Source: a virus. Taken from it: a DNA stretch of 64,000 nt. A program made the translations under genes and the position numbers. The stretch covers positions 1-64,000 of IMG/VR virus record IMGVR_UViG_3300029957_000008; one strand, given 5' to 3'. Positions 50,182 to 64,000 of the stretch are shown one piece after another. A model generated the notes under the pieces. The model ran no database searches. It was not told the origin of the DNA and was given only the letters and a program-made list of their open reading frames with translations. Every line of letters begins with the position of its first letter. Position 1 is the stretch's first letter.

Positions 50182-52365
50182 ATGCTGTGCCCCAACATTA
50201 AAGATTCCAAGGGAATGCTCATCGATGGAGTTTTTTCATCGGAGGCCATCGACTCTTCAGGAGAAGTTGTAAAACTTGAAGGTATTGATATCTCCTCTAT
50301 GGAAGAGGGGCACGGGGTTGCCAATTACGAGCACAAGGGAATAGACGCTGGAGGCTTTGGCCGGGAGATCGTAGGAAGGATCATCTACGTCCACAAGGTT
50401 TTTAAGGCTTCGGACTGCGAAGATGACCGCCAAAGGATGTTTTGGAAGAAAGTCAAGGAGCAGCCCTTTCTCTACGGTATGGTCCGGCTTTACGATGCTG
50501 CGGGCCACACCGGAGCAGAGGCCCTAGCGGCCCAAATCCGGGATGCTGTCTACCACGATGATGAAATTACGGTTAGGTACTCCGTAGAGGGTACAACCCT
50601 TGAGCGGGATGGAAACATCATTAAGACCTCCATCGCTAGGAAGGTTGCTCTAATCATTGGCCCCTGCAATAAGACCTGTCTATCCGGTGTGGTTAAAGAC
50701 ACCAACGCCCCTAAGGGATACCAAAAAGAGGACATCGAGAAGTCTGAATTATTGTCCGATCCTTCAAGCCGAAGCATCGGTGACGCCCCAGAGTACCAGT
50801 ACAACCCAATCGTGTCGGATTTTACCAAGAACCCGCTTATTGATCTGGTCCAGAGCTTAGAGCTACTAAAGAGCATGACGGCGGGTGGTGGAGACGCAGC
50901 CCCTTCTACTCTTACTGGCGGCCAAGCTCTACAAAGGGAAGAGCTAGGTGGCGTCTACAAGAACCACATCGTTGACGCCATCAAGGACTACAAAGACCCT
51001 TGGGACCACGGTAAGTTTCGAAAGTTTCTAAAAGCTCGGTTGGACAAAGCTGACCTTCCTGAGGTTTCTGACTCGTTCTTGGACTACTTCATGGGGATCG
51101 CCAAGGACTACCAGATTAAGAAGCATCAGGACATTAACCAGGAGTACATTACTAATACTTCGCTGGTTGGCCAAGTCCATCAGTTAGAAGGATATCTGGT
51201 TGAGCTGAGGAAGTCCATCAGAGACGAGCTAGAGGGGTACCAAGTTAGCCTTCCTGAGGTTTACGCCGTCAAGATGAAGGTGGGTAATGATTACCTACCC
51301 GCTGGTCGGTTCATGGTGGTTCAAAACGCAGTCCACCACCTAGAAGACTACCATGGGATCCTAGCAGCTATGATTCCCGAAGGGCCTTTGGGTGTAGACG
51401 GCCAGACTGGAATAGAAGCCCTCAAGATGGTCCCCGAGTTCTCGGTTACCGAGCATCAGATTCCTGAGCCGGTAGCCAATACAGTACCTGGTATTGTTGG
51501 GGTGGTTTCCAACAAGCTTCAAGCCCCACAAAGGGCCGCTGTTTTTGAATATATTCGGCCCGGTATGGGGCAGTCCCATATTGTTGAGTTTAGTGAGCAT
51601 GGCGCAGCCCTGGATGGTGAAAAGCTGACAGATGATGAGCTGAATCTCATTGTCTCCAATGTTGAAAGCGGTTTGGCTACTCTCAAGTGGAAGCAGAATA
51701 GCAACCAGGACTTGAGTAAGTCTGACATGGGCGTGCATGAGGCTATGGCTGGTTTAAGAGCGGCCGTATCGGCCGGACATGTGCATCCTGATGTCGAAAG
51801 GGCGTTTACCAAGCACGTCTTTGAGGACCACATGGTTCCTGGGGTGGGTAATAAGTTCGCTTGGAATGAATTTCAACGACAGAACAAGCCAGGAGTACTT
51901 GGGTCTATTGATCTTAACTCTTTTAAGCACATTAACGATACTCGCGGCCATATTGCCGGCGATAGCGCGATCAAGGCCGTTGGTGGGGCACTGAAGAGTG
52001 CTGCTGAGAAGGTTGGGACAGTAAAGCTGTTTAGGACTGGTGGAGACGAGTTTGCCATTCACAGCCCTACTCAAGAAGATGCTCATAGGTTTATGAGAGA
52101 AGCAAGGTCTCACATGGCTCAAATACCGCCAGTTGGCGGGGTACATAAGCCATCGTTCAGTATCGGCTTGGGCCAGGACTTTGGGACGGCAGACAAGGCT
52201 TTGTATCTAGCCAAGAAGCAAAAGGTCGATCCTGTGACGGGTAAGAACGCCTATCACCCTGCCAGAACTCCTCACTTGGGGCACTCTTTGCTGCCAGGAT
52301 CGGAAGGGCCGATCAATATGTCTGAAGCACCTACGGCTTCGACTGGGTCAAAGGTAGCGGCGTAG
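50182..52365 (+). CDS. prohead protease fused to C-terminal GGDEF diguanylate cyclase
   Basis: N-term IDSSGE, NYEH, YSVEG, VAL...PCN; C-term DLNSFKHINDTRGHIAGD...RTGGDEF...ADKALYLAK. Confidence 0.85.
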   Translation: MLCPNIKDSKGMLIDGVFSSEAIDSSGEVVKLEGIDISSMEEGHGVANYEHKGIDAGGFGREIVGRIIYVHKVFKASDCEDDRQRMFWKKVKEQPFLYGMVRLYDAAGHTGAEALAAQIRDAVYHDDEITVRYSVEGTTLERDGNIIKTSIARKVALIIGPCNKTCLSGVVKDTNAPKGYQKEDIEKSELLSDPSSRSIGDAPEYQYNPIVSDFTKNPLIDLVQSLELLKSMTAGGGDAAPSTLTGGQALQREELGGVYKNHIVDAIKDYKDPWDHGKFRKFLKARLDKADLPEVSDSFLDYFMGIAKDYQIKKHQDINQEYITNTSLVGQVHQLEGYLVELRKSIRDELEGYQVSLPEVYAVKMKVGNDYLPAGRFMVVQNAVHHLEDYHGILAAMIPEGPLGVDGQTGIEALKMVPEFSVTEHQIPEPVANTVPGIVGVVSNKLQAPQRAAVFEYIRPGMGQSHIVEFSEHGAALDGEKLTDDELNLIVSNVESGLATLKWKQNSNQDLSKSDMGVHEAMAGLRAAVSAGHVHPDVERAFTKHVFEDHMVPGVGNKFAWNEFQRQNKPGVLGSIDLNSFKHINDTRGHIAGDSAIKAVGGALKSAAEKVGTVKLFRTGGDEFAIHSPTQEDAHRFMREARSHMAQIPPVGGVHKPSFSIGLGQDFGTADKALYLAKKQKVDPVTGKNAYHPARTPHLGHSLLPGSEGPINMSEAPTASTGSKVAA

Positions 52366-53286: not shown

Positions 53287-54219
53287 ATGGACATGAAAAA
53301 TCTAACAAAGAAAGGTCTGGAGAAACTCATTGATGATGTTTCTTTGGGTCTTACGGCCGTCTTGGCAAAAGCCGAGGCGGAAGGCGCTGTTGAAGGACAG
53401 ACGCTAGCGAAAGCAGACCCAGGGCAGGAAGCTCCTGCGGAAAAGGTCCCTGCTGGTTCGTCTAGCGAAAGTTCCGATTCCAGCCCCGCCAAAGAGGAAT
53501 CTAGTCCTGCAGCCCCGGCCGCAGATGCTAGTCCTGCTGAGGAAACTCCTGGTGAAGTACCTGTTGCAGAAGGGGCGCCTGCTCCTAGTGCCGAAGGTTC
53601 GGAACCAGCAGAAGACACGGGTGGTACGGTTGAGCAGCTTCAGGCTGAATACGCCGCACTTCCTGTCGAGGAACAGAAGATGCACTTGCTAGCTCTCAAA
53701 GCTGCTTTGATGTCGACGTTGGCATCTCAGGGTGGCGAAGGCGATGCCGGTGTTGCTCCTGAAGGTATGCCTGCTCCAGACGCTTCTGCGGCTCCCGCCG
53801 CTCCCGAAGCTGCTGCCCCAGCGCCTGCCCCAGAGCAAACAGAAATGCCTCCGATGGCTAAGTCCGAAGACCGAGCACTTGCTCTAGAACTTGAGACCCT
53901 TAAGAAGGCCTTGAGTGACAAGGAAGAGATTATTGCAAGCACCAATCAAATGGCGGCTGCTTTCAAGAACTTCCTTGAGCGAAACAACGGTCGTCGGCTT
54001 TCAGTCGCTGCGGCTTCGGTTATGCCGAAGACTCAGACCGACCTAGCCAAGTCAGAAGGTATTGACGTCACCTCTCTTTCCCCAGTGGAAATCAACCGGA
54101 AGCTCACAGAGGTAGCGGCTTCGGGAACCCTCAAGAAATCAGATAAAGACCTCGTCCTTAAGTATGTAGCTGGCAGGGACAAAAAAGATGTCGGCTCAAT
54201 CGCACATCTTTTAAAGTAA
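53287..54219 (+). CDS. head scaffolding protein
   Basis: acidic A/P/E-rich coiled coil immediately upstream of capsid gene; several LAK(A/S) motifs. Confidence 0.7.
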   Translation: MDMKNLTKKGLEKLIDDVSLGLTAVLAKAEAEGAVEGQTLAKADPGQEAPAEKVPAGSSSESSDSSPAKEESSPAAPAADASPAEETPGEVPVAEGAPAPSAEGSEPAEDTGGTVEQLQAEYAALPVEEQKMHLLALKAALMSTLASQGGEGDAGVAPEGMPAPDASAAPAAPEAAAPAPAPEQTEMPPMAKSEDRALALELETLKKALSDKEEIIASTNQMAAAFKNFLERNNGRRLSVAAASVMPKTQTDLAKSEGIDVTSLSPVEINRKLTEVAASGTLKKSDKDLVLKYVAGRDKKDVGSIAHLLK

Positions 54220-54235: not shown

Positions 54236-55651
54236 ATGAATCCATTGTCGCAAATTCAAGACCTCGTAAAGGCACTAGAGGCCGGCAACTATGATGCCGC
54301 CCCCAGCACACTAGAGCAAGGCTCTGCCCTGCAGATTGAAGACCTCAATCCTGTCATGGTCATGGTCACAGCAGAAGAAAAACACATTAAGCTCCAGAAG
54401 CTGATTCCTGTTGAGTCGTCTAAGTCGACGACTTTTCAGTTCAACCGTCAGCTCTCGGTTGGTATCATGGGTGGCAGCGCTCAGATGGAAGGTAACGTTG
54501 GTCAAGAGGAAACTTCTGACTACGTACGTATCACCATCCCAATGACGTACTACTCGCACATTCGTCGGGTGACTGTTGCTTCGACCTTGGTTGCCAGCTC
54601 TGATGGTAAGAAGTCAGATGAACGGGCGGCTCAGGATGCGGCTAAGAAAGTCTCCTTTGACGTTGAGTTCGACCTCTTCCGTGGTCTTGAGTGTTTCAGC
54701 AACGCCGGTACTTTCGACGGCAACCCGCTGACCACCTCGAACCTTCTCCCCAACATGCATGGCCTTTCGCTCCAGGTTCGTCAGTCGGACTTCCAGGTGA
54801 ACAGCCGTGATGCAATGTTCGCCGAGTTCGGTTCGGATCAGACGGTTGTTCTTTCAGCCGGTGGTTCGACTCTAACCCAGGGTATCATTGAAGACGGCGC
54901 TCTCCGTAGCTCTTTGGGCTTCGGCGAAGCGGACAAGCTCATTGTGGATCCCGTGGTTCTCGCTAACTACAACAAGATCACGTTCGGCAAAGAGCGTATC
55001 ATCCTCGCGGGTAGCCCGCAAGATGCGACTGCCGGTGACCTTCGTCGTCAGTGGGTCTCGGGCGGCACTGTGAACATTGAAGCTTCGCAGTTCCTCCGTG
55101 GCAAGTTCAAGCCCGCTCCTGTGCGTGCGAACAGCCCCGTGGCTCCTGCTAGCATCACTGTGACCCCGGCTTCGGCCACCAACCCGACCGGCCTCGCCGC
55201 TGGTGTTTATTACTACTTCGCTACCGCTGGTAACGAAGTTGGTGAGTCGGTTGCTTGTACGGCAGTGTCTTCGGGCAGCGTGACGAAGGACTACAAGGTT
55301 ACGGTTGTGGTTACCCAGCCCGCGTCTGGCGTCTACCGCTTCTACAACATCTACCGTTCGCCTGTCGGCGGTACGGCAGCTCAGGCCAAGTTCATTGGTC
55401 GCGTTGTTCCGACCCAGGGCTCGTCCACGACTAACTTCGTTGACCTCAACGGCATGAATCCTGCAGCGGTTACTGGTTACTTCCTTCAGAAGGACGGAGC
55501 CAGCATTCGTGAACTGGCTTCTTACAGCCGCCTCAAGCTGGCCGTCTCGGACCTCAGCATGCCGGAAGCTCACTTCCGCTTCCTGGGCCTAGCGGTTGAG
55601 ACTCCTCGCAAGTTCGTCCTCATCGACAACTTGAATGGTACCATCAGCTAA
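54236..55651 (+). CDS. major capsid protein
   Basis: KALEAG...GSALQIEDL N-arm, EFDLFRG, Ig-like insertion (YYY...YNIYRS); strong RBS and terminator. Confidence 0.85.
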   Translation: MNPLSQIQDLVKALEAGNYDAAPSTLEQGSALQIEDLNPVMVMVTAEEKHIKLQKLIPVESSKSTTFQFNRQLSVGIMGGSAQMEGNVGQEETSDYVRITIPMTYYSHIRRVTVASTLVASSDGKKSDERAAQDAAKKVSFDVEFDLFRGLECFSNAGTFDGNPLTTSNLLPNMHGLSLQVRQSDFQVNSRDAMFAEFGSDQTVVLSAGGSTLTQGIIEDGALRSSLGFGEADKLIVDPVVLANYNKITFGKERIILAGSPQDATAGDLRRQWVSGGTVNIEASQFLRGKFKPAPVRANSPVAPASITVTPASATNPTGLAAGVYYYFATAGNEVGESVACTAVSSGSVTKDYKVTVVVTQPASGVYRFYNIYRSPVGGTAAQAKFIGRVVPTQGSSTTNFVDLNGMNPAAVTGYFLQKDGASIRELASYSRLKLAVSDLSMPEAHFRFLGLAVETPRKFVLIDNLNGTIS

Positions 55652-55679: not shown

Positions 55680-55700
55680 AAGGCCCGCAAGGGCCTTTTT
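55680..55700 (+). terminator. rho-independent terminator
   Basis: AAGGCCC-GCAA-GGGCCTT followed by a T run. Confidence 0.9.
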
Positions 55701-56060: not shown

Positions 56061-56624
56061 ATGATTCGCGTTCTAATTTGTTCAGCTTACGGCAACCAGC
56101 CTTCAAATCTGGTTAAGGCCCTTAAATATTCACGATACGCCTTATATAAGGGTTATGCCACCTTTGCTCCACACATCGAGTACTCTTCTTGTCTTTCCGA
56201 TTCCGATGAGGACGAACGGGAGATGGGTATTAATGCCGGACTGGCATTTTTATTAGTGTGTGGGGAGATGTGGGTCTTTGTGGTTGATGGCGTTCTCTCA
56301 ACTGGCATGAAGAAAGAGATCAAAACAGCGATTAAGAACAACGTCCTAATCCGTTGGTTTGATGCCTCGAACGACGAGGATATTAAAGAGCTAATGCACA
56401 TTCCTTCAGACAGAGTACCCCTCAAGAGAGACTTCGTTACCGACCTAGGAAAGGCTACGGTCAGCAAGTTTTCCGAGATCGAAGCCTTGCTTAAGAGTGG
56501 GGCTAAGTATGGAGACTTGGTAGACAGCATTGACGATCTCCTTGGAACCGCCATGCCAGACAGGGATCTTGAGGCCGAGCAAATCTACGAAAACACAGTT
56601 AAGGATCGAGATGAAGAAATATAA
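56061..56624 (+). CDS. nucleoside 2-deoxyribosyltransferase-like protein
   Basis: ICSAY, FAPH, ER..G...L..C.EMWVF, STGMKKEI. Confidence 0.65.
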   Translation: MIRVLICSAYGNQPSNLVKALKYSRYALYKGYATFAPHIEYSSCLSDSDEDEREMGINAGLAFLLVCGEMWVFVVDGVLSTGMKKEIKTAIKNNVLIRWFDASNDEDIKELMHIPSDRVPLKRDFVTDLGKATVSKFSEIEALLKSGAKYGDLVDSIDDLLGTAMPDRDLEAEQIYENTVKDRDEEI

Positions 56625-56883
56625 GTGGAAAGAATCATCCGTAGTCTTGCAGCTTCTGCGGGATGACGCACAGTCAAAGATCCTGGTGGATGCTCTCCGT
56701 CAGAGACAGCTCAAATCGGATGTGACGGTAAAGCTGGACGGGAAAACCTACCGACTCGTTGAAGCGTTCCCGTGTAGGGCATCCTCCGACAAGATCTGGA
56801 AGGAACAGGTTAAATACTGTCTACGGAAATTACGAGATTTCTTGAATCGATTTCTAGGTCGTCCGATTCCCTCACATAGCTAA
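56611..56883 (+). CDS. hypothetical protein
   Basis: ATG overlapping upstream gene end. Confidence 0.5.
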   Translation: MKKYKWKESSVVLQLLRDDAQSKILVDALRQRQLKSDVTVKLDGKTYRLVEAFPCRASSDKIWKEQVKYCLRKLRDFLNRFLGRPIPSHS

Positions 56884-56902
56884 TCCCAACAATCTTTATT
56901 GC

Positions 56903-57328
56903 ATGAAGCTTTCGGCACGTCCTCTCATTGATGTTTCGTCTGTTAACGACTACGGTACGTCCGAACAGTTAGAGATGACGGCCGGTGACAGCCCCACTCT
57001 TTACCTGCAACTCATTGATTTAGAAAAGAATCTAGCCAAATACGGCTACGAGCCGGCAGGGCTAAGGTATATGCCCCTGGCGACCACAACGCCTACCTTG
57101 GCTGTTACCTTTACCCATATTGACGACGCCAAGCAGTTCACCAGATTTGCCACACAGCCCTTTACTCAGGATCCTTCGATTTGGGCCTGTCCAATCCTAG
57201 CAAGCGATCCAATTGCCGGCACCGTTACAATCAAGTGTGTTTTGACTGAAAACAAAGGCACCTCCCTAGCCCCTATTCCGGTTCAGAAGACCTTTACGAT
57301 GCACGCTGCAGTGCTGGTTGGCGTATAA
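56903..57328 (+). CDS. putative virion structural protein
   Basis: late motif CAATCTTTAT at 56890; beta-rich. Confidence 0.55.
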   Translation: MKLSARPLIDVSSVNDYGTSEQLEMTAGDSPTLYLQLIDLEKNLAKYGYEPAGLRYMPLATTTPTLAVTFTHIDDAKQFTRFATQPFTQDPSIWACPILASDPIAGTVTIKCVLTENKGTSLAPIPVQKTFTMHAAVLVGV

Positions 57329-57329
57329 T

Positions 57330-58175
57330 ATGGCTGATTTCTCAAATTCCAAGGACGGCTTAGGTCGGGTTCTATCAGAGAACGCGGTTGCCGTCCAGTG
57401 GGAGGACTTAGAACCCCTCCTTTCTCCCCAACAGCTGATCAGGCTCCATCTCTTTGGTCTACCCCTCGTTTCTGGTGTAAGGAATCCTATCACCAGAAAA
57501 TTTGACGTAATGACGAGCGATATTCTCAAGGAGCATATTCTCAATGCGATTGCCCTTGCGGAAGAGGAAGCCAGGATTGACATCTTCCCTCGTCAGTACA
57601 AGGAGAAGCAGGCGTTCGACAGAGTAGCCTATCAGAACTTTGGCTACTTTCAACTGCGCCACCTTCCTGTAGACAGCATCCAAGACCTCGTAGTTGCTAC
57701 CTCGTCTGAAGACCAAGTCTATAGAGTCCCCTTGGACTGGATCGACGTGGGATATCTCAGGCAAGGGCAGATGAACATTCTACCCCTAACCCTCAAGATT
57801 CAAAACGGTGTTATGTCCCCTCTTTTGGCCGGTCCAGGCGGCAGCGCCTTCCTGGCCATCTTTGGGAACTATCCATGGCTGGCTTCTTTCTGGGAGGTTT
57901 TCTACACTACCGGCTTCAAGGATGGAACGCTCCCTAAGATCGTCAATCAGTACATCGGCACCATTGCGGCCATGGAGGTCATCTCGGCCCTGGCCGCAAC
58001 CTATTCAAGGACAACTTCCAATAGCTTGAATATTGATGGTTTAGGACAGTCGATTTCTGGTCCTGGTCCTGAGCTGTATAAGACCCGACTGAACGATCTT
58101 GAAGTGAAGCGCAAGATGCTCTGTGGCCGCCTCAAGAACCGCCTTGGAGTCGGAATTTTAGTGAATAACGTTTAA
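57330..58175 (+). CDS. head-tail adaptor/neck protein
   Basis: LFGLPL, YTTGF...LP...IG.IAA, SLNIDGLGQSIS. Confidence 0.65.
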   Translation: MADFSNSKDGLGRVLSENAVAVQWEDLEPLLSPQQLIRLHLFGLPLVSGVRNPITRKFDVMTSDILKEHILNAIALAEEEARIDIFPRQYKEKQAFDRVAYQNFGYFQLRHLPVDSIQDLVVATSSEDQVYRVPLDWIDVGYLRQGQMNILPLTLKIQNGVMSPLLAGPGGSAFLAIFGNYPWLASFWEVFYTTGFKDGTLPKIVNQYIGTIAAMEVISALAATYSRTTSNSLNIDGLGQSISGPGPELYKTRLNDLEVKRKMLCGRLKNRLGVGILVNNV

Positions 58176-61100
58176 ATGGATCAAGACACCAAACCCAAGG
58201 AGTTTTCTGTCGTCATCATTTCTGATGGCCAAGGGAAAGTTCTGTTTGGCAAGCGAAACGACAATAAGAAGTGGACGTTGGCTGCAGGCGGCCTTAATCC
58301 GGGCGAAACGCCCGAAGAAGGAGCCTTAAGAGAAATGTTCGAGGAGACAGGGTTAAGACCGAAGAAGCTGTCCTTTGTAACGACAAAAAAGACTCCCAAC
58401 AATACAGTCCACTTCTTCTCATGTCAATGCCCCGGTGAGCCTACTACCGAAAACGATCCCGACAAGGAATGCTCCAAGCTTCAATGGGTTGATGTTCGTG
58501 GTGGAGTCCCTTCCAACATATGGAACAACCTCCATGGTCCAAAGGGCGATGAAAACATCGTAAGACAAGTCTACGACCTCAAGAAGTCGGAGCAAGTTTG
58601 GCTAGAGGATTGTGGATTCCTAGACCTATCTAAGTCAGAAAACGAGTCAGAGGTTTCGACACTTCTAAGGCACCCAAATCCCTCTGAACGATCTCTAGCC
58701 CTTAAGCTCAACACCGTCACACCTCACGATCTAGCCGTGGCTATCCTAGATCCAGATCCTAAGGTCTGGGGAACGGCGTTTGACCACAAAGATGCTACCC
58801 ACGCTCACACAATTCTCTCTTCTAATACTAGGGATGCTGCGGGAAACCCTCTTTGGGAACGACACAACCTGCTACTAAAAGACCCCAGGTTCAATAAAGA
58901 GCATCTTACGCTCATGGCTCATGCCGTCCGCAAAGACTCCTCGTTATCCCCTAAAGACCAAGCTGACAGACTTAAGGTCTTGGCCCTCAATGGGTACTCG
59001 GATCTCAAGAAGTCTTCTGCGTGGGCACATCATCTGTTATACGCAGGTTCCACCCAAGGACAAGATCTTGCCGACTCAAGTGCCGAACCTGTTCACGAGA
59101 CCCTAAAGCCTCTCAAACACGAGTATGAATCGGCTCTATCGTCTGAGGACGCTATTGAGCCGCACAACGCTGGTTTGCATGACATTGGCCAGGTGTCTCA
59201 TAAGGTGGTCTACAAGGTTGGATCTAACAAGCTCATGGTGAAGCCCTATGCCGAAGAAGAACAGCCTTTGTCTGGTTGGTCTGAAGGGGCTTCTCAAGCT
59301 ATCTACCATGCCGCCGGTTTGGGACACCTACATCAAAGGTCCTTTGTGTCCCATCACGGCGGTGGGAAGTACAACATTCCGGCTACTGTGATTCATTTGG
59401 ATGCTGAGGCAACGCCTATCCATAAGGCTCCCTTAGGGACAGTCAGGGAGCAGAATCCGGCTTTGGATGACGAAGCCAGGAAGATGTCTGTGATGGACTT
59501 CCTTACGGCGAACCACGACCGGCACACCAACAACCTCATGGTCCAAAAGAACGGCCATTTGTTGGCCGTGGATAACGCCAGTGCGTTTGGAAGCCACCCG
59601 TACACATTTCCTTACTACACCAATAAGGGTGTAAGCGTAGTTCTTGGAAAAAATCATGACATGCTGCCTGAAGGGAAGCAGGCCTATACACGGCTATTAG
59701 CCGATTGGTGGCCTGGGATTAGTACGGATGTGAAGTCTGAGCTGAATAAGCGGGTCGCCCAGATTAAGCACCCGGCTCACAGTCGGAGAATCAAGGAGGC
59801 CTTTGACCAAAGGGCTGCTTGGCTAGACCGAAAGTCTCAGGAAGCCAAAGCTGGAAATGTTAGTGGGTTTGATGACTTTGCTCCTGCTCCGTTAGAGAAA
59901 AGGATGGAGGAAGCCGAGTTTCTTGGCGATCACCCTAAGATGAAAATCGAAGGGTTGCACGAGAATCTTTTGGACAAGCACCCGGCGTCAATGAACGCCG
60001 ACGTAGAGCACTTTGAGAAGAACGTCAATACCTCTAAGCACAATGTACGCCCTTTGAAGGAGAAGCTCAAGGGGGCCGACATGAAGGCTGTTTACGGCCA
60101 TGCGGATAAGAAGTACTTGGTTAAGCCGTCTGTTTTCAATAATGAAGAGCTGACCCACCTCAATACGCCACTTTCTGCCTGGTCAGAGCTTACACACCAG
60201 GCGATGTACCACGCTGGTGGTATCGGACACCTACACCAGAAGGTTCATGCCACTGTTGCCAAGAATGTGTTTCCTGATGCTCATGGGCTCGTAGTCCACA
60301 TGGAGCCAGGAGCCAAGGAAGTCCGGGAGCTTAATGATAAGGAGAAGACTGCGCTAACCAACCATCCTGACTTCAAGAAGATCCCCTTTATGGACTTTGT
60401 GACTTTTAACAAGGACCGTCACGAAGGAAATCTGATGGTTAAGCCTGACGGTACTCCGCTTGCGATTGACCACAGTCTTGTTTTTGGGAAAGACGCCGAC
60501 TCCAAGTTCTCCTTAGAGAACCAAGATCTGCATTATGAAGAGCCGGGGTATGGATTCAGAACGCCTATGCAGACTGCGTCCAAACCGGATGCTAGCACTT
60601 GGGCTTGGTGGGACGCAAACAAAGACAAGATCAAAGAGTCTTTCCACAAGCACGCGGACCTTATTCCTCACAAAGAGACCCGGAACAGACTAAAAGACTC
60701 GTTCAACTACAGAATGGACATGCTGGAAGATGGCGCTACGCCCATGGGCCAGCCAATTAGGGAAGGCCTACATAAGACACTTGAAGGTGCTGACTTCCTT
60801 CATAAACAGCACGATCAGCCGTCTTTAATCAAGCCCATCAACGTTGCTGGCGTCCATGACAAGCTCAAGGTCTCTACTCCTGACGCCATAAAGATTCACA
60901 GGCAGAAGTTTGAGCTTGGGTTAAATCAGCACCCAACTGTGGCTAAGCCTGTAATGAGCTACGATCCTTCGGTCAAGCGAACACTTGCAGGTGAAGAACC
61001 TAAGGCTATCTACAAGATGGGCAATGACCACGTAATGGTTAAACCCCAGGCCGCTCCAACATCAAGGCTTTCGGCCTGGAACGAAATGACTTCCCAGGCG

Positions 61101-61955
61101 ATGTACCACGCTGGAGGTATTGGGCATCTACACCAGAAGGTTCACGCAACAACTTTGGCCAATCAGGGGGGTAAGACTGTTCTTGGCAAGGACCCCCACG
61201 CAATCGTGGTGCACATGGCGCCTAACGTCCGACCCGTTTCGGAGGCATTGAAGGACGATCAAGATACCAGCTTAGACAGCATGGCCAGCAATCCAGAACA
61301 CCTACAGTCTCTCAAGAAAATCGGGGTTATGGACTGGTTGACATCGAATCCTGATAGGCATGAGGGGAATATTATGATTGCTCCCGATGGGTCTCCCTTG
61401 GCTATCGATCACGGTCGAGCTTTTTCAAGCGATAGAGTTCACGCTTTTGGTGGTGAGTATGATCGTGATTTGGAGGCTCAAGGTCGAATTGCTTTGGCCG
61501 GACACCTCAATCACCCCGACATGCCTAAGGCGACCAGTCAAATTATGGAAAGTGTTGGGAAGCAAAAGGCTTGGGACGAAGCTGTGAACAAAGACCCTCA
61601 CAAGCAGTTGGATGGGTTTGACAATTTTAGTGGGTATGGTGGTGGAGACTTTTTCTCCGACGCCACCAAAATGGGCGGATCCCCAGATGAGGAAACCTGG
61701 AACTGGTTTGACGCAAACAAAGATAAAATGCATGAGGCTTTTAGGAAGCACGCTAACATGCTCCCCGACCAAGACGCCCGAAACAAAATGATGGGGTCGT
61801 TTAATGTCAGGATGGAACACCTAAAGCAAGTTCGAGAGAATAGCCGAGGTAAGGATCCTAACAAGTTAGATGTTCAAAACCACTCACCCGTAGCTTATCG
61901 GCCTACGGCCCCAAGCATGGTTGAATCTCATCCAACGGAAAGAAGGGTAGCCTAA
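58176..61955 (+). CDS. polyprotein: Nudix hydrolase, HEAT-like region and three HipA/PI3K-like kinase domains
   Basis: Nudix box GGLNPGETPEEGALREMFEETG; three N.DRH..N.M...A(I/V)D(N/H) motifs each preceded by VKP and a conserved E. Confidence 0.85.
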   Translation: MDQDTKPKEFSVVIISDGQGKVLFGKRNDNKKWTLAAGGLNPGETPEEGALREMFEETGLRPKKLSFVTTKKTPNNTVHFFSCQCPGEPTTENDPDKECSKLQWVDVRGGVPSNIWNNLHGPKGDENIVRQVYDLKKSEQVWLEDCGFLDLSKSENESEVSTLLRHPNPSERSLALKLNTVTPHDLAVAILDPDPKVWGTAFDHKDATHAHTILSSNTRDAAGNPLWERHNLLLKDPRFNKEHLTLMAHAVRKDSSLSPKDQADRLKVLALNGYSDLKKSSAWAHHLLYAGSTQGQDLADSSAEPVHETLKPLKHEYESALSSEDAIEPHNAGLHDIGQVSHKVVYKVGSNKLMVKPYAEEEQPLSGWSEGASQAIYHAAGLGHLHQRSFVSHHGGGKYNIPATVIHLDAEATPIHKAPLGTVREQNPALDDEARKMSVMDFLTANHDRHTNNLMVQKNGHLLAVDNASAFGSHPYTFPYYTNKGVSVVLGKNHDMLPEGKQAYTRLLADWWPGISTDVKSELNKRVAQIKHPAHSRRIKEAFDQRAAWLDRKSQEAKAGNVSGFDDFAPAPLEKRMEEAEFLGDHPKMKIEGLHENLLDKHPASMNADVEHFEKNVNTSKHNVRPLKEKLKGADMKAVYGHADKKYLVKPSVFNNEELTHLNTPLSAWSELTHQAMYHAGGIGHLHQKVHATVAKNVFPDAHGLVVHMEPGAKEVRELNDKEKTALTNHPDFKKIPFMDFVTFNKDRHEGNLMVKPDGTPLAIDHSLVFGKDADSKFSLENQDLHYEEPGYGFRTPMQTASKPDASTWAWWDANKDKIKESFHKHADLIPHKETRNRLKDSFNYRMDMLEDGATPMGQPIREGLHKTLEGADFLHKQHDQPSLIKPINVAGVHDKLKVSTPDAIKIHRQKFELGLNQHPTVAKPVMSYDPSVKRTLAGEEPKAIYKMGNDHVMVKPQAAPTSRLSAWNEMTSQAMYHAGGIGHLHQKVHATTLANQGGKTVLGKDPHAIVVHMAPNVRPVSEALKDDQDTSLDSMASNPEHLQSLKKIGVMDWLTSNPDRHEGNIMIAPDGSPLAIDHGRAFSSDRVHAFGGEYDRDLEAQGRIALAGHLNHPDMPKATSQIMESVGKQKAWDEAVNKDPHKQLDGFDNFSGYGGGDFFSDATKMGGSPDEETWNWFDANKDKMHEAFRKHANMLPDQDARNKMMGSFNVRMEHLKQVRENSRGKDPNKLDVQNHSPVAYRPTAPSMVESHPTERRVA

Positions 61956-61958
61956 GTG

Positions 61959-61987
61959 TTGACTTTTTGTAACGGTATTGATATAGT
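61959..61987 (+). promoter_or_regulatory. sigma70-type promoter
   Basis: TTGACT-17-TATAGT. Confidence 0.65.
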
Positions 61988-61995
61988 AGGACAAA

Positions 61996-62181
61996 ATGAC
62001 TATTAAGGTCTATCACGCATCGAATAACTCAACCAAAAGCTACTCCGGGAGCCCTGAACAGGTTCTTGAGCAGTTGATGGCTACCTATACGTTCCTCAAG
62101 CGCTATCCAACCCATTCCTTGGCTTGCGCGTTGAAGAACCTAGGTCGGCAGCAGAATTACTTCGTTGAGATCGAGGAATAG
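61996..62181 (+). CDS. small protein paralogous to the N-domain of the downstream kinase
   Basis: KSYSGSPEQV...LKNLGRQQN versus KQVYEGTEQDV...VKDLDRSQN. Confidence 0.65.
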   Translation: MTIKVYHASNNSTKSYSGSPEQVLEQLMATYTFLKRYPTHSLACALKNLGRQQNYFVEIEE

Positions 62182-63503
62182 TGCAAGTCACAGTCCACAA
62201 CCACTTCAACGACCAGAAGCAGGTCTACGAAGGCACCGAACAGGATGTTCGATTTGAAATCTTTAATGATTTCCCGTATTTACTATCTAAATACGGTTCG
62301 GACGCCAATGTAGATCTTCTAGTTAAGGACCTTGATCGTTCCCAGAACCTTTCTGCCGTGATTTCTTCAATCACCCTAGCAAAAACCGAGGTAGAGCTAC
62401 CTCAAACTCCTGAAGCTCAGTTCTTCCCCAAGGACCAGTATCTAGAACTGGTAAGGGAAGCCGCAGAGTTCCTGTCTGGCATTCCATGTGACAAAGAAAT
62501 GCTACGCAGGACTCTCCAGGAGAACGATGGCGACGAGAAGGTTGCTTGTCTGGTATCTGTAGGTCTGGAGCCCTCTGAAGCCAACCTAGCGGCCCTAAGG
62601 GCCGTAATGAACGTTAGGTTAGCCAAGTCTGAAGAAGAGCCAATTGTCTTTAGTAAAGTTGAGGCTTTTAGTGATTCTGGCACAGATTTTGCCGAGATGA
62701 TTAAAAGGGCCGTTACGGCCCAAACTATTAAGGAAATTCAATTCAAGGCCGGCAAGCATTCCAAGGGAACACTCCTAGCCAAGGACCCAGAGACCTTCAC
62801 GCAGTTACTATTAAAGCCAGGAGCTGGCAAGCAAAATCCTGCACTTGGAGAAAGCCAAGTTCAAGCGTCCCAGAGCGTCCGGGAAGCGGCGTTTTACGCC
62901 GTAGCGGACGCATGGGGACTGGCCAAAGACCTGCCAGAGTGCAAGCTGCTGTATATTGACGATCAAGAGTATGCGGCTATGCAGTTTCTACCCCAGAAGT
63001 GGGTTAACGGCAACGATCTAAGGCGACAGGATCCCAATGCAGCCAGAAGATACCTGAGCCCCTACTTGATTCAGGGAGATGTCCATCGTTGGGCTGTATT
63101 AGACTATATTTTGGCCAATCCGGACAGGAACGCTGGAAATATCATGTTCCGGGATGGCCATATCAAGCTGATTGACCATGGGTCGGCTTTGGCCGGGATC
63201 GACTTCAGTCCAGCTATTGACAACCACGCCTTTGTTCCTTACTACCTAAGAGTTTTTGCTTCTGGCGGTTTTGGCAAGATGGAGCCAGAGCAACGTCTGA
63301 AGGCGCTACCTCGACTGAATTCTGAGGGCGAAAAGAAGCTGGCCGAGTGGATTGGTAGGCTCAACAAGGAAGTCGTACAAAAGATTCTAATTCCCTACGG
63401 GATCGATCCCACTCCTGAATTGGCTAGGTTGGAACTGTTGAAATTTGCGTGCAGTGTCCAGTCGGCCGATTTGGCTGTGTTAAGTGTGTGGACGATAGGA
63501 TAG
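62181..63503 (+). CDS. HipA/PI3K-like kinase
   Basis: LLKPG, REAAFY, LDYILANPDRNAGNIM...LIDHG. Confidence 0.82.
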   Translation: MQVTVHNHFNDQKQVYEGTEQDVRFEIFNDFPYLLSKYGSDANVDLLVKDLDRSQNLSAVISSITLAKTEVELPQTPEAQFFPKDQYLELVREAAEFLSGIPCDKEMLRRTLQENDGDEKVACLVSVGLEPSEANLAALRAVMNVRLAKSEEEPIVFSKVEAFSDSGTDFAEMIKRAVTAQTIKEIQFKAGKHSKGTLLAKDPETFTQLLLKPGAGKQNPALGESQVQASQSVREAAFYAVADAWGLAKDLPECKLLYIDDQEYAAMQFLPQKWVNGNDLRRQDPNAARRYLSPYLIQGDVHRWAVLDYILANPDRNAGNIMFRDGHIKLIDHGSALAGIDFSPAIDNHAFVPYYLRVFASGGFGKMEPEQRLKALPRLNSEGEKKLAEWIGRLNKEVVQKILIPYGIDPTPELARLELLKFACSVQSADLAVLSVWTIG

Positions 63504-63550
63504 CTGCTACAAGTTTTGAATAGTAATCTTAGGTTAGAGGTACAACATCT

Positions 63551-63949
63551 ATGGCACTAGCGAGTTCGGTTCAGTTTGAACTTAATATGAAGGGTTCTGT
63601 CACAGGTCGTGAGTATGTGGGCCTTTTCGAGGCTAAGACCAAGACCTCGGTGATGGACACTCTTGAGGAGAATCGCGTTTACCGTAGGGTTCTAGGTGAA
63701 AACCCCCAGGATGCAGCGGAAGACATTAAGCGGATTGCTGAGGCGTATGCCTATTTACAGATCCGGCTGATTAAGTTCCCGGACTGGTGGAAGGAAGCTG
63801 GTCACGGTTTGGGCCTTGAGGACCTTGAAGTTCTGGCTAAGGTGAACAATACTGCCCGAGAGAAGATCGGCGCAGAGTACGAAAAGCTCGCTGCAGAGGC
63901 CGATGCGGCCAAGAAGGGGCTTAAGGAAGAGGCGGCTAAGTTAGGGTAA
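63551..63949 (+). CDS. putative tail assembly chaperone-like late protein
   Basis: late motif TAATCTT at 63524, GAGG RBS; PDWW motif. Confidence 0.4.
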   Translation: MALASSVQFELNMKGSVTGREYVGLFEAKTKTSVMDTLEENRVYRRVLGENPQDAAEDIKRIAEAYAYLQIRLIKFPDWWKEAGHGLGLEDLEVLAKVNNTAREKIGAEYEKLAAEADAAKKGLKEEAAKLG

Positions 63950-64000
63950 TCGTGTGGCTACAGAGTGGCCCCAAGCTCTTAGAATCATAGCATTCAAAGA

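Follow-up and report, generated by a model that had tools for sequence, protein, structure and literature searches.

The window analysed here, a stretch of 64,000 nucleotides (positions 1 to 64,000 of IMG/VR virus record IMGVR_UViG_3300029957_000008, itself a 92-kb fragment of a phage of ~164 kb), carries a long gene, P0001, whose single product combines a Nudix hydrolase, a helical-repeat module and three tandem kinases (K1, K2 and K3). The open reading frame (ORF) runs without interruption across 1259 codons of the + strand, its ATG lying immediately 3' of the TAA of the upstream gene. The protein is rich in histidine (77 of 1259 residues, or 6.1%), as had been remarked in the original prediction made from the letters of this DNA, and contains only four cysteines. 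Its parts are arranged as follows, with model confidence expressed as the predicted local distance difference test (pLDDT) and residues abbreviated as aa:

58176-61955, + strand: P0001 gene, 1259 aa, Nudix, helical-repeat and three-kinase protein (translation, Pfam)
58197-58571, + strand: Nudix hydrolase domain, aa 8-132 (Pfam, model with pLDDT 80-88, structure search)
58287-58355, + strand: Nudix box, aa 38-60 (translation)
58650-58985, + strand: alpha-helical repeat domain, LRV/HEAT-like, aa 159-270 (model with pLDDT 84-93, eight helices)
59106-59912, + strand: K1, aa 311-579, with MVK356P, DRH448-450, N453 and D466 (Pfam, alignment)
59994-60827, + strand: K2, aa 607-884, with VK650P, DRH747-749, N752 and D765 (Pfam, alignment, model)
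60891-61910, + strand: K3, aa 906-1245, with VK956P, DRH1060-1062, N1065 and D1078 (Pfam, alignment)

We hold these domain identities to be close to certain; the packaging, cleavage, injection and substrates of P0001, to which we turn below, are what we infer.

The N-terminal domain has the complete Nudix box noted in the original prediction, which reads G38-x5-E44-x7-R52-E53-x2-E56-E57-x-G59 with L60 next, is invariant across orthologues, and sits in a match of 74.7 bits to PF00293 (cut-off 21.1; aa 10-107). A structural model of aa 1-330 (pLDDT 76.8) folds aa 8-132 as an alpha/beta/alpha Nudix domain and leaves aa 145-156 and 278-298 disordered (pLDDT <50). Compared with dozens of solved Nudix enzymes, the domain gives a flat list of matches (Z 12-14.6 over 114-130 residues) in which no subfamily is singled out. 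RppH is the top sequence match of the domain, yet it appears only at ranks 28 and 39 of the structure search, and its sequence score does not support an RppH identity: 44.5 bits is far below the NCBIfam equivalog cut-offs (116-259), with no more than aa 13-72 aligned. The stretch originally called HEAT-like is indeed a helical repeat, modelled with confidence at aa 159-270; the name HEAT did not fare as well, the LRV/HEAT label coming from Pfam matches in a few relatives and from weak ESM Atlas leads (0.81-0.84). In the structure search with the aa 1-330 model the matches listed were filled by the Nudix domain, which masked the helical part.

The kinase segments, cut for the Pfam search at aa 321-600 (K1), 601-905 (K2) and 906-1259 (K3), each exceed the cut-off of PF00454 (PI3_PI4_kinase), with 37.3, 29.7 and 35.1 bits against 27.1, the matches spanning only profile positions ~126-181 of 241, that is the catalytic-loop segment, in these three as in a fourth kinase encoded nearby (K4, see below). 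Pairwise identity among the three is 30-38% (E 2e-22 to 2e-53), K2 and K3 being 37% identical, and K3 bears an insert of ~70 aa C-terminal to the metal-binding Asp. The VKP lysine, the helix-C Glu, the DRHxxN motif and the (I/V)D(H/N) Asp are present in each of the three, and six to seven orthologues show no change at any of them. The claim of three tandem kinases with their catalytic residues in place was confirmed. In an alignment of 41 kinase domains from the window and related loci, Lys, Glu, DRH, Asn and Asp are likewise invariant or nearly so, and conservation in the family peaks at the signature SQAxYHAGGIGHLHQK. The same alignment was used for folding K2. The resulting model (mean pLDDT 79.5, predicted template modelling score 0.83) has type II phosphatidylinositol 4-kinase (PI4KII-alpha) as its best structural match (Z 16.9, 245 residues aligned, root-mean-square deviation 3.3 A), followed lower down by CtkA of H. 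pylori (Z 13.2), CotH (13.1), ATM and Fam20 (11.7 each) and HipT/HipA (~10.5); Foldseek concurs, with E 1e-5 to PI3K and PI4KII. Structure prediction, which had been proposed as a check, thus returned a kinase fold for K2 and a Nudix fold for the N-terminus. The HipA-like label is a looser description than the best one available, since no HipA family is listed among the Pfam matches of P0001 at E<=1 and the structural score stands at ~10.5 against 16.9 for PI4KII; one relative, P0030, does have a HipA_2 match (31.1 bits against 27).

Modelling and profiles together place K1-K3 as atypical kinases of the PI3/PI4-kinase-like class, and by their residues they look catalytically intact. They share the bilobal kinase fold, DRHxxN and (I/V)D(H/N) with PI4KII-alpha (4pla/4hnd), CtkA, CotH, Fam20C and HipA, but differ in that identity is only 9-15%, in the signature of their own, and in standing in tandem inside a phage head-module protein. 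Two related loci contain possible pseudokinases: in L026 (5187-5981) the first domain has NRH..H in place of DRH..N, and in L027 (2014-2973) N replaces the metal-binding Asp.

P0001 is one member of a large family. Seventy relatives, of 760-1940 residues and with genome contexts drawn from the related loci, have C-terminal kinases behind varied N-terminal parts; a scan of 26 long ones found Nudix in 21, PBECR5 in eight (E 1e-24) and GNAT in eight, and other N-terminal domains are ART-PolyVal (E 2.3e-20), His_Phos_1, Peptidase_C39 and HEAT/LRV. A profile of the 41 domains matched 418 clusters at E<=1e-30 among 1.84 billion representative proteins, and among the matches listed the kinase is nearly always C-terminal, in proteins of ~250-2560 residues. 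BFVD also has phage proteins with similar kinase folds, their annotations being those of portal, head-morphogenesis (MuF), ART or Nudix fusions. By profile search, large proteins of loci L013, L021, L022 and L023 (including P0012-P0016) carry three kinases of the K1, K2 and K3 types. In P0012-P0016 no Nudix is on record, which suggests a kinase triplet that moves separately from the Nudix. Among GenBank phages there was no match to the DNA, and the protein search matched only the Nudix of Myxococcus phage Mx1. Scanning one genome per prokaryotic species with a sequence pattern turned up no relatives and gave no link to a prophage or host. No paper on this kinase family was found in the literature, and looking there for virion proteomes of haloarchaeal viruses that have comparable kinase folds also yielded nothing useful.

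That P0001 belongs to the polyvalent proteins is well supported, because in its family variable N-terminal enzymes (Nudix, GNAT, ART-PolyVal, PBECR5) stand in front of the kinases. One phage polypeptide holds the disparate activities of a Nudix and three kinases, its homologues share a domain network with ART-PolyVal, PBECR5 and GNAT, and the gene is linked to virion genes, with the capsid and connector genes on one side and the tail genes on the other. Polyvalent proteins, known from phages and conjugative elements, have been proposed to be injected with the DNA (Iyer et al. 2017, PMC5512222), and P0001 has in common with them the unrelated enzyme domains on one polypeptide, the virion-gene neighbours and the predicted co-delivery with DNA. 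The kinase described in that work is different, being of a truncated Ser/Thr/Tyr type from elements of Verrucomicrobia, Chlamydia and Bacteroidetes, and Nudix is mentioned there once in passing, neither the P0001-type kinase family nor its repeated association with Nudix being described (PMC5512222). What stays constant in the P0001 family is a C-terminal set of one to three PI4KII-like kinases, in most cases joined to a Nudix. Processing would differ too, as fused zincin-like peptidases were proposed for polyvalent proteins (PMC5512222) and a prohead protease acting at a K/S motif is what we propose for P0001. The effector array imagined in the original prediction fits such a class to the extent that relatives carry ART-PolyVal, PBECR5 and GNAT domains, which are typical of polyvalent proteins.

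The gene is embedded in a head module. Upstream (5') lie genes for terminase, portal, a protease-like protein, a scaffold-like protein and the major capsid protein, and downstream (3') lie K4, large proteins without assignment and a baseplate gene. Three neighbours matter for what follows:

50182-52365, + strand: candidate processing enzyme, 727 aa, prohead-protease-like with GGDEF (phrog_1028 at E 3.9e-4, Pfam)
57318-58175, + strand: head-tail connector or head-completion-like gene (ESM Atlas, weak phrog_772)
62181-63503, + strand: K4, a fourth, divergent PI3/PI4-like kinase, 440 aa (Pfam, Mx1 identity, motif alignment)

In ORF 50182-52365 the weak prohead-protease match covers aa 8-52 and a C-terminal GGDEF domain covers aa 560-679 (Pfam E 1.3e-15). 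P0001 had been said to follow directly on the neck gene; the adjacency is exact, and the identity of that neighbour as a neck protein is plausible, given ESM Atlas resemblances to the gp6-like, HCP and Phage_connect_1 families (template modelling score 0.5-0.7). What had been missed is that the next gene encodes K4, a kinase of the same superfamily (PF00454, 32.2 bits against 27.1; 26% identical to K1), which has DRN instead of DRH. K4-type genes lie 3' of the large protein in most related loci, with LLKPG, DRHxxN-like and IDHG motifs kept.

The nearest cultured phage is Mx1 (OR576727.2), whose major capsid protein is 52% identical, and this kinship is what leads us to regard the host as probably myxobacterial. 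At the syntenic place of its head module Mx1 encodes WNM70333.1 ('NUDIX hydrolase', 1479 aa) and WNM70334.1 ('kinase', 619 aa), in the order portal, 'putative prohead protease', separate cyclase, capsid, NUDIX hydrolase, kinase. The Nudix domains of the two phages are 42% identical, and the Mx1 kinase is the orthologue of K4 (37.5% identical). However, the Mx1 Nudix protein lacks a P0001-type kinase and has its Nudix at aa 924-1044 rather than at the N-terminus, and its cyclase is a gene of its own after the 1239-aa 'putative prohead protease', whereas in the window the GGDEF domain is fused to the protease-like ORF. The Mx1 genome announcement is silent on the NUDIX hydrolase and kinase genes.

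The head-module proteins share a short motif, [LMI]-x-K-S-[E/D], that looks like a cleavage site. In the proteins encoded at 42864-64565 (5839 aa) it occurs 11 times against 0.6 expected, the maximum in 1000 shuffles being four, and in the other 23,123 aa of the genome once against 2.1 expected. P0001 has two copies, K4 one (LAK/SE, aa 147-151, a slash marking the candidate cut), the portal one, the scaffold-like protein three and the protease-like protein two. The complete Mx1 genome repeats the pattern, with nine in the head module (expected 0.58) against one in 44,810 aa, and most of the divergent related loci tested show the enrichment too, several of them with a copy immediately C-terminal to the Nudix domain. 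Across 190 family proteins we counted 128 motifs against 14 expected, a nine-fold excess, with 122 of the 128 outside the kinase envelopes, and at 32 of 96 Nudix boxes a motif stands 97-104 residues from the start of the box. Enrichment requires Ser after Lys, Ala, Thr and Gly being little enriched, and the relaxed form [LMI]xK[SAT] occurs in P0001 at 1.24x the genome rate, that is, it is not enriched; only the five-position motif discriminates. The candidate sites of P0001 are:

58578-58592, + strand: L135-K-K-S-E139, putative site K137/S138, at the end of the Nudix fold
58626-58640, + strand: L151-S-K-S-E155, putative site K153/S154, in a disordered linker; L151 and K153 invariant
59004-59018, + strand: L277-K-K-S-S281, relaxed form, possible site K279/S280, in a segment with pLDDT <50; K279 and S281 invariant
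60768-60782, + strand: L865-H-K-T-L869, at the K2/K3 junction, possible site K867/T868, in a segment with pLDDT <50 (residues 264-271 of the K2 model)

Three of the four therefore fall in segments with pLDDT <50 and the fourth at the end of the Nudix fold, where D134, K136, K137, S138 and E139 are invariant in seven orthologues. The junction sequence L865-H-K-T-L869 aligns by eye with a canonical ...GQPIMK/SE... of relative L015.

Further sites were noted in the neighbouring proteins. Of the two strict sites in protease-like ORF 50182-52365, one (LSK/SD, aa 511-515) stands right before the GGDEF domain. The scaffold-like protein (53287-54219, + strand; 310 aa, rich in Ala, Pro and Glu) has seven copies of [LMI]xK[SAT], 5.9x the genome rate, including its three strict ones. 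The major capsid protein (54236-55651, + strand) begins with a 12-residue leader ending in LVK, followed by ALEAG..DAAPSTL..GSALQIEDL, a segment which we take to resemble the N-arm of HK97-type capsids, and a similar segment follows LLK/S in the protease-like ORF (aa 228-255), as if mimicking the capsid N-arm.

The motif is probably the site of a prohead protease, and on that reading P0001 and K4 would enter the prohead and be cut there into separate enzymes. T4, phiKZ and SPN3US offer a parallel, in that the scaffold, portal, capsid and internal proteins of a single phage have a short cleavage motif in common and the cargo is retained inside the head; the motif-specific prohead protease of SPN3US processes many head proteins, internal ones included, and favours Ser at P1' (PMC10052503). 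The P1 residue predicted for P0001 is Lys, unlike that of the T4, phiKZ and SPN3US proteases, and whole enzyme domains would be released rather than only N-terminal propeptides. Those proteases cut after Glu, and a P1 Lys is the pattern of HK97, whose capsid protein is cut after Lys103, before Ser104, with a similar N-arm following the cut.

Our preferred explanation, which we rate only slightly above an even chance, is that P0001 is a packaged, protease-processed polyvalent cargo that delivers its Nudix and kinases at infection. The protein, encoded in the head module of an Mx1-like contractile-tailed phage, would be made late and loaded into the prohead, where the prohead protease would cut it after the Lys of hydrophobic-x-K/S-(E/D) sequences in flexible linkers. 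The products would be the Nudix (~aa 1-137), the helical-repeat module (~154-279) and one or more fragments with the three PI4KII-like kinases; these pieces would remain in the capsid together with K4, pass into the cell along with the viral genome and be at work ahead of all phage gene expression. The predicted role of the kinases is to phosphorylate host targets, most likely proteins, in the manner of the T7 kinase against defence systems, and that of the Nudix is to clear away a signal, cap or metabolite linked through a nucleotide diphosphate. The T7 kinase is a broad anti-defence enzyme (PMC13645617), and T7 gp0.7 resembles P0001 as a phage kinase used for host takeover and the disarming of defence; it is a functional precedent only, since it belongs to an unrelated kinase family, has a single domain and is expressed from an early gene rather than carried as virion cargo. 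A bolder extension, which we put forward tentatively and think has well under an even chance, is that the K/S code releases in the capsid a whole set of signalling enzymes (the Nudix, the three kinases, K4 and the protease-fused GGDEF), a kit delivered at DNA entry in which each kinase has a different target.

Several points speak against the packaged-cargo explanation. The motif was first spotted in this genome, so that out-of-sample evidence comes from the Mx1 and family-wide counts only, and motif sites related by homology are not fully independent of each other. ORF 50182 is only weakly assignable as a protease (PHROG E 3.9e-4, no Pfam protease at E<=0.01), and its N-terminal 230 aa have no sequence match in the PDB. 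P0001 has no fused MuF or portal domain, the K1/K2 junction (LEK/R) is non-canonical, and the substrates of the five catalytic domains remain putative. Finally, an enrichment specific for Ser also fits a phospho-acceptor site.

This last point opens the strongest of the rival explanations, that P0001 is a late cytoplasmic, unpackaged protein whose kinases modify phage head proteins or late host targets, the motif being their phospho-acceptor. Ser is needed after Lys, with Ala, Thr and Gly little enriched; disordered linkers are typical places for phosphosites as well; the nearer folds include CotH (Z 13.1) and Fam20 (Z 11.7), CotH and Fam20C being modifiers of structural or secreted proteins; and every motif-bearing phage examined also encodes a K4-type kinase. 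We nevertheless judge it unlikely. The sites coincide exactly with domain boundaries and follow the Nudix fold at a constant distance, the scaffold-like protein has many of them, and the capsid protein has L-V-K/A, without Ser, before the segment that we take to be N-arm-like. A serine at P1' is moreover what the SPN3US protease prefers (PMC10052503). The HK97 cut falls at Lys103/Ser104. The phosphosite and protease-site readings could both hold.

A second rival concerns the substrate only, and proposes that the kinases are lipid or small-molecule kinases acting on the host membrane or metabolites. PI4KII-alpha tops the structure list, more than 3 Z units above the next match, Pfam places the domains in PI3_PI4_kinase, K1 has after its metal-binding Asp a ...DN..AF... 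form that we take to be that of PI4KII, and the nearest cultured relative infects Myxococcus, inositol lipids having been reported in myxobacteria. Yet the same fold class includes the protein kinases CtkA, HipA, CotH, Fam20C, actin-fragmin kinase and ATM/TOR, and the Pfam matches reach no further than the catalytic-loop segment. P0001, with its four cysteines, has no membrane-binding feature that we could find, and the family is large. On balance we consider a lipid or small-molecule substrate improbable.

A third proposal arose from the similarity, pointed out in the original prediction, between two stretches of K2 and K3, which had been taken as a sign of duplication or gene conversion:

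60198-60248, + strand: K2 segment, 51 nucleotides (nt), encoding QAMYHAGGIGHLHQKVH (DNA comparison)
61095-61145, + strand: K3 segment, 51 nt, encoding the same 17 aa (46/51 nt identical to K2)

The near-identity is real. All five differences are synonymous, and 12 of the 17 codons are identical against 7.6 expected from the codon usage of the genome (P ~0.02), whereas the equivalent K2/K3 comparison in orthologue L010 gives just 38/51 nt. But the shared peptide is the most conserved motif of the family across the 41 domains, identity falls to 81% over 83 nt in the flanking DNA, and K2 and K3 are no more than 37% identical overall. In a maximum-likelihood tree the K1-type domains of different, distant phages form one clade (97/80), the K3-type domains another (98/96), and the K2 and K3 types are jointly grouped (98/89), which refutes a recent whole-domain duplication. 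Because these clades are shared across phages, the K1, K2 and K3 positions are old and conserved, and such conserved positions fit divergent roles. K1-K3 are ancient paralogues that have held their position across distant phages. The comparison of copy number originally proposed, which we ran among 72 relatives, gave one kinase in 20, two in 31 and three in 19. Purifying selection accounts for most of the likeness between the two segments; a short K2/K3 conversion tract is possible and weakly supported, and is not needed to explain the similarity. A recently duplicated, gene-converting kinase array is thus highly improbable. Equally so is the idea that the kinase-like domains lack catalytic activity and serve as structural or packaging parts in an internal head body, which would suit their nearly constant, anchor-like C-terminal position and the rare relatives with degenerate catalytic loops (L026, L027), but not the retention of Lys, Glu, DRHxxN and Asp in nearly all of the 41 domains and throughout K1-K3 in each of the seven orthologues.

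Some further features of the region are worth recording. Between the capsid and connector genes lies a nucleoside 2-deoxyribosyltransferase-like gene (56061-56624, + strand; phrog_355, E 4e-11), at a spot whose Mx1 counterpart holds thymidylate synthase and a deoxynucleoside monophosphate kinase. Directly 3' of the major capsid gene, a GC-rich hairpin with a T tract (55680-55697) is terminator-like on both strands. No + strand terminator-like site was found at 56248-64000, and promoter-like and terminator-like sites around P0001 are no commoner than in shuffles. The 225-nt gap between P0001 and K4 (61956-62180) contains only a 61-codon ORF (61996-62181), and L010 has a 154-aa gene at the same position (L010 14271-14735).

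The polyvalent class was already known, as were the Mx1 genes labelled 'NUDIX hydrolase' and 'kinase' in GenBank. What is new is a large family built on C-terminal PI4KII-like kinases, usually accompanied by a Nudix, with an old arrangement of three paralogues, and a head-module motif with out-of-sample replication. If the packaged-cargo explanation is true, Mx1-like soil phages pack into their particles active kinases and a Nudix that the capsid protease has freed from a polyprotein, and would provide a testable case of pre-made enzymes for host takeover or anti-defence. The recent observation from T7 that phage kinases disarm defences would then reach a large and so far unstudied group of kinases, with at least 418 sequence clusters. 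The motif would serve as a practical predictor of processed head-module cargo and of the positions of its cuts, in a setting where Mx1 is cultured and its host is genetically tractable.

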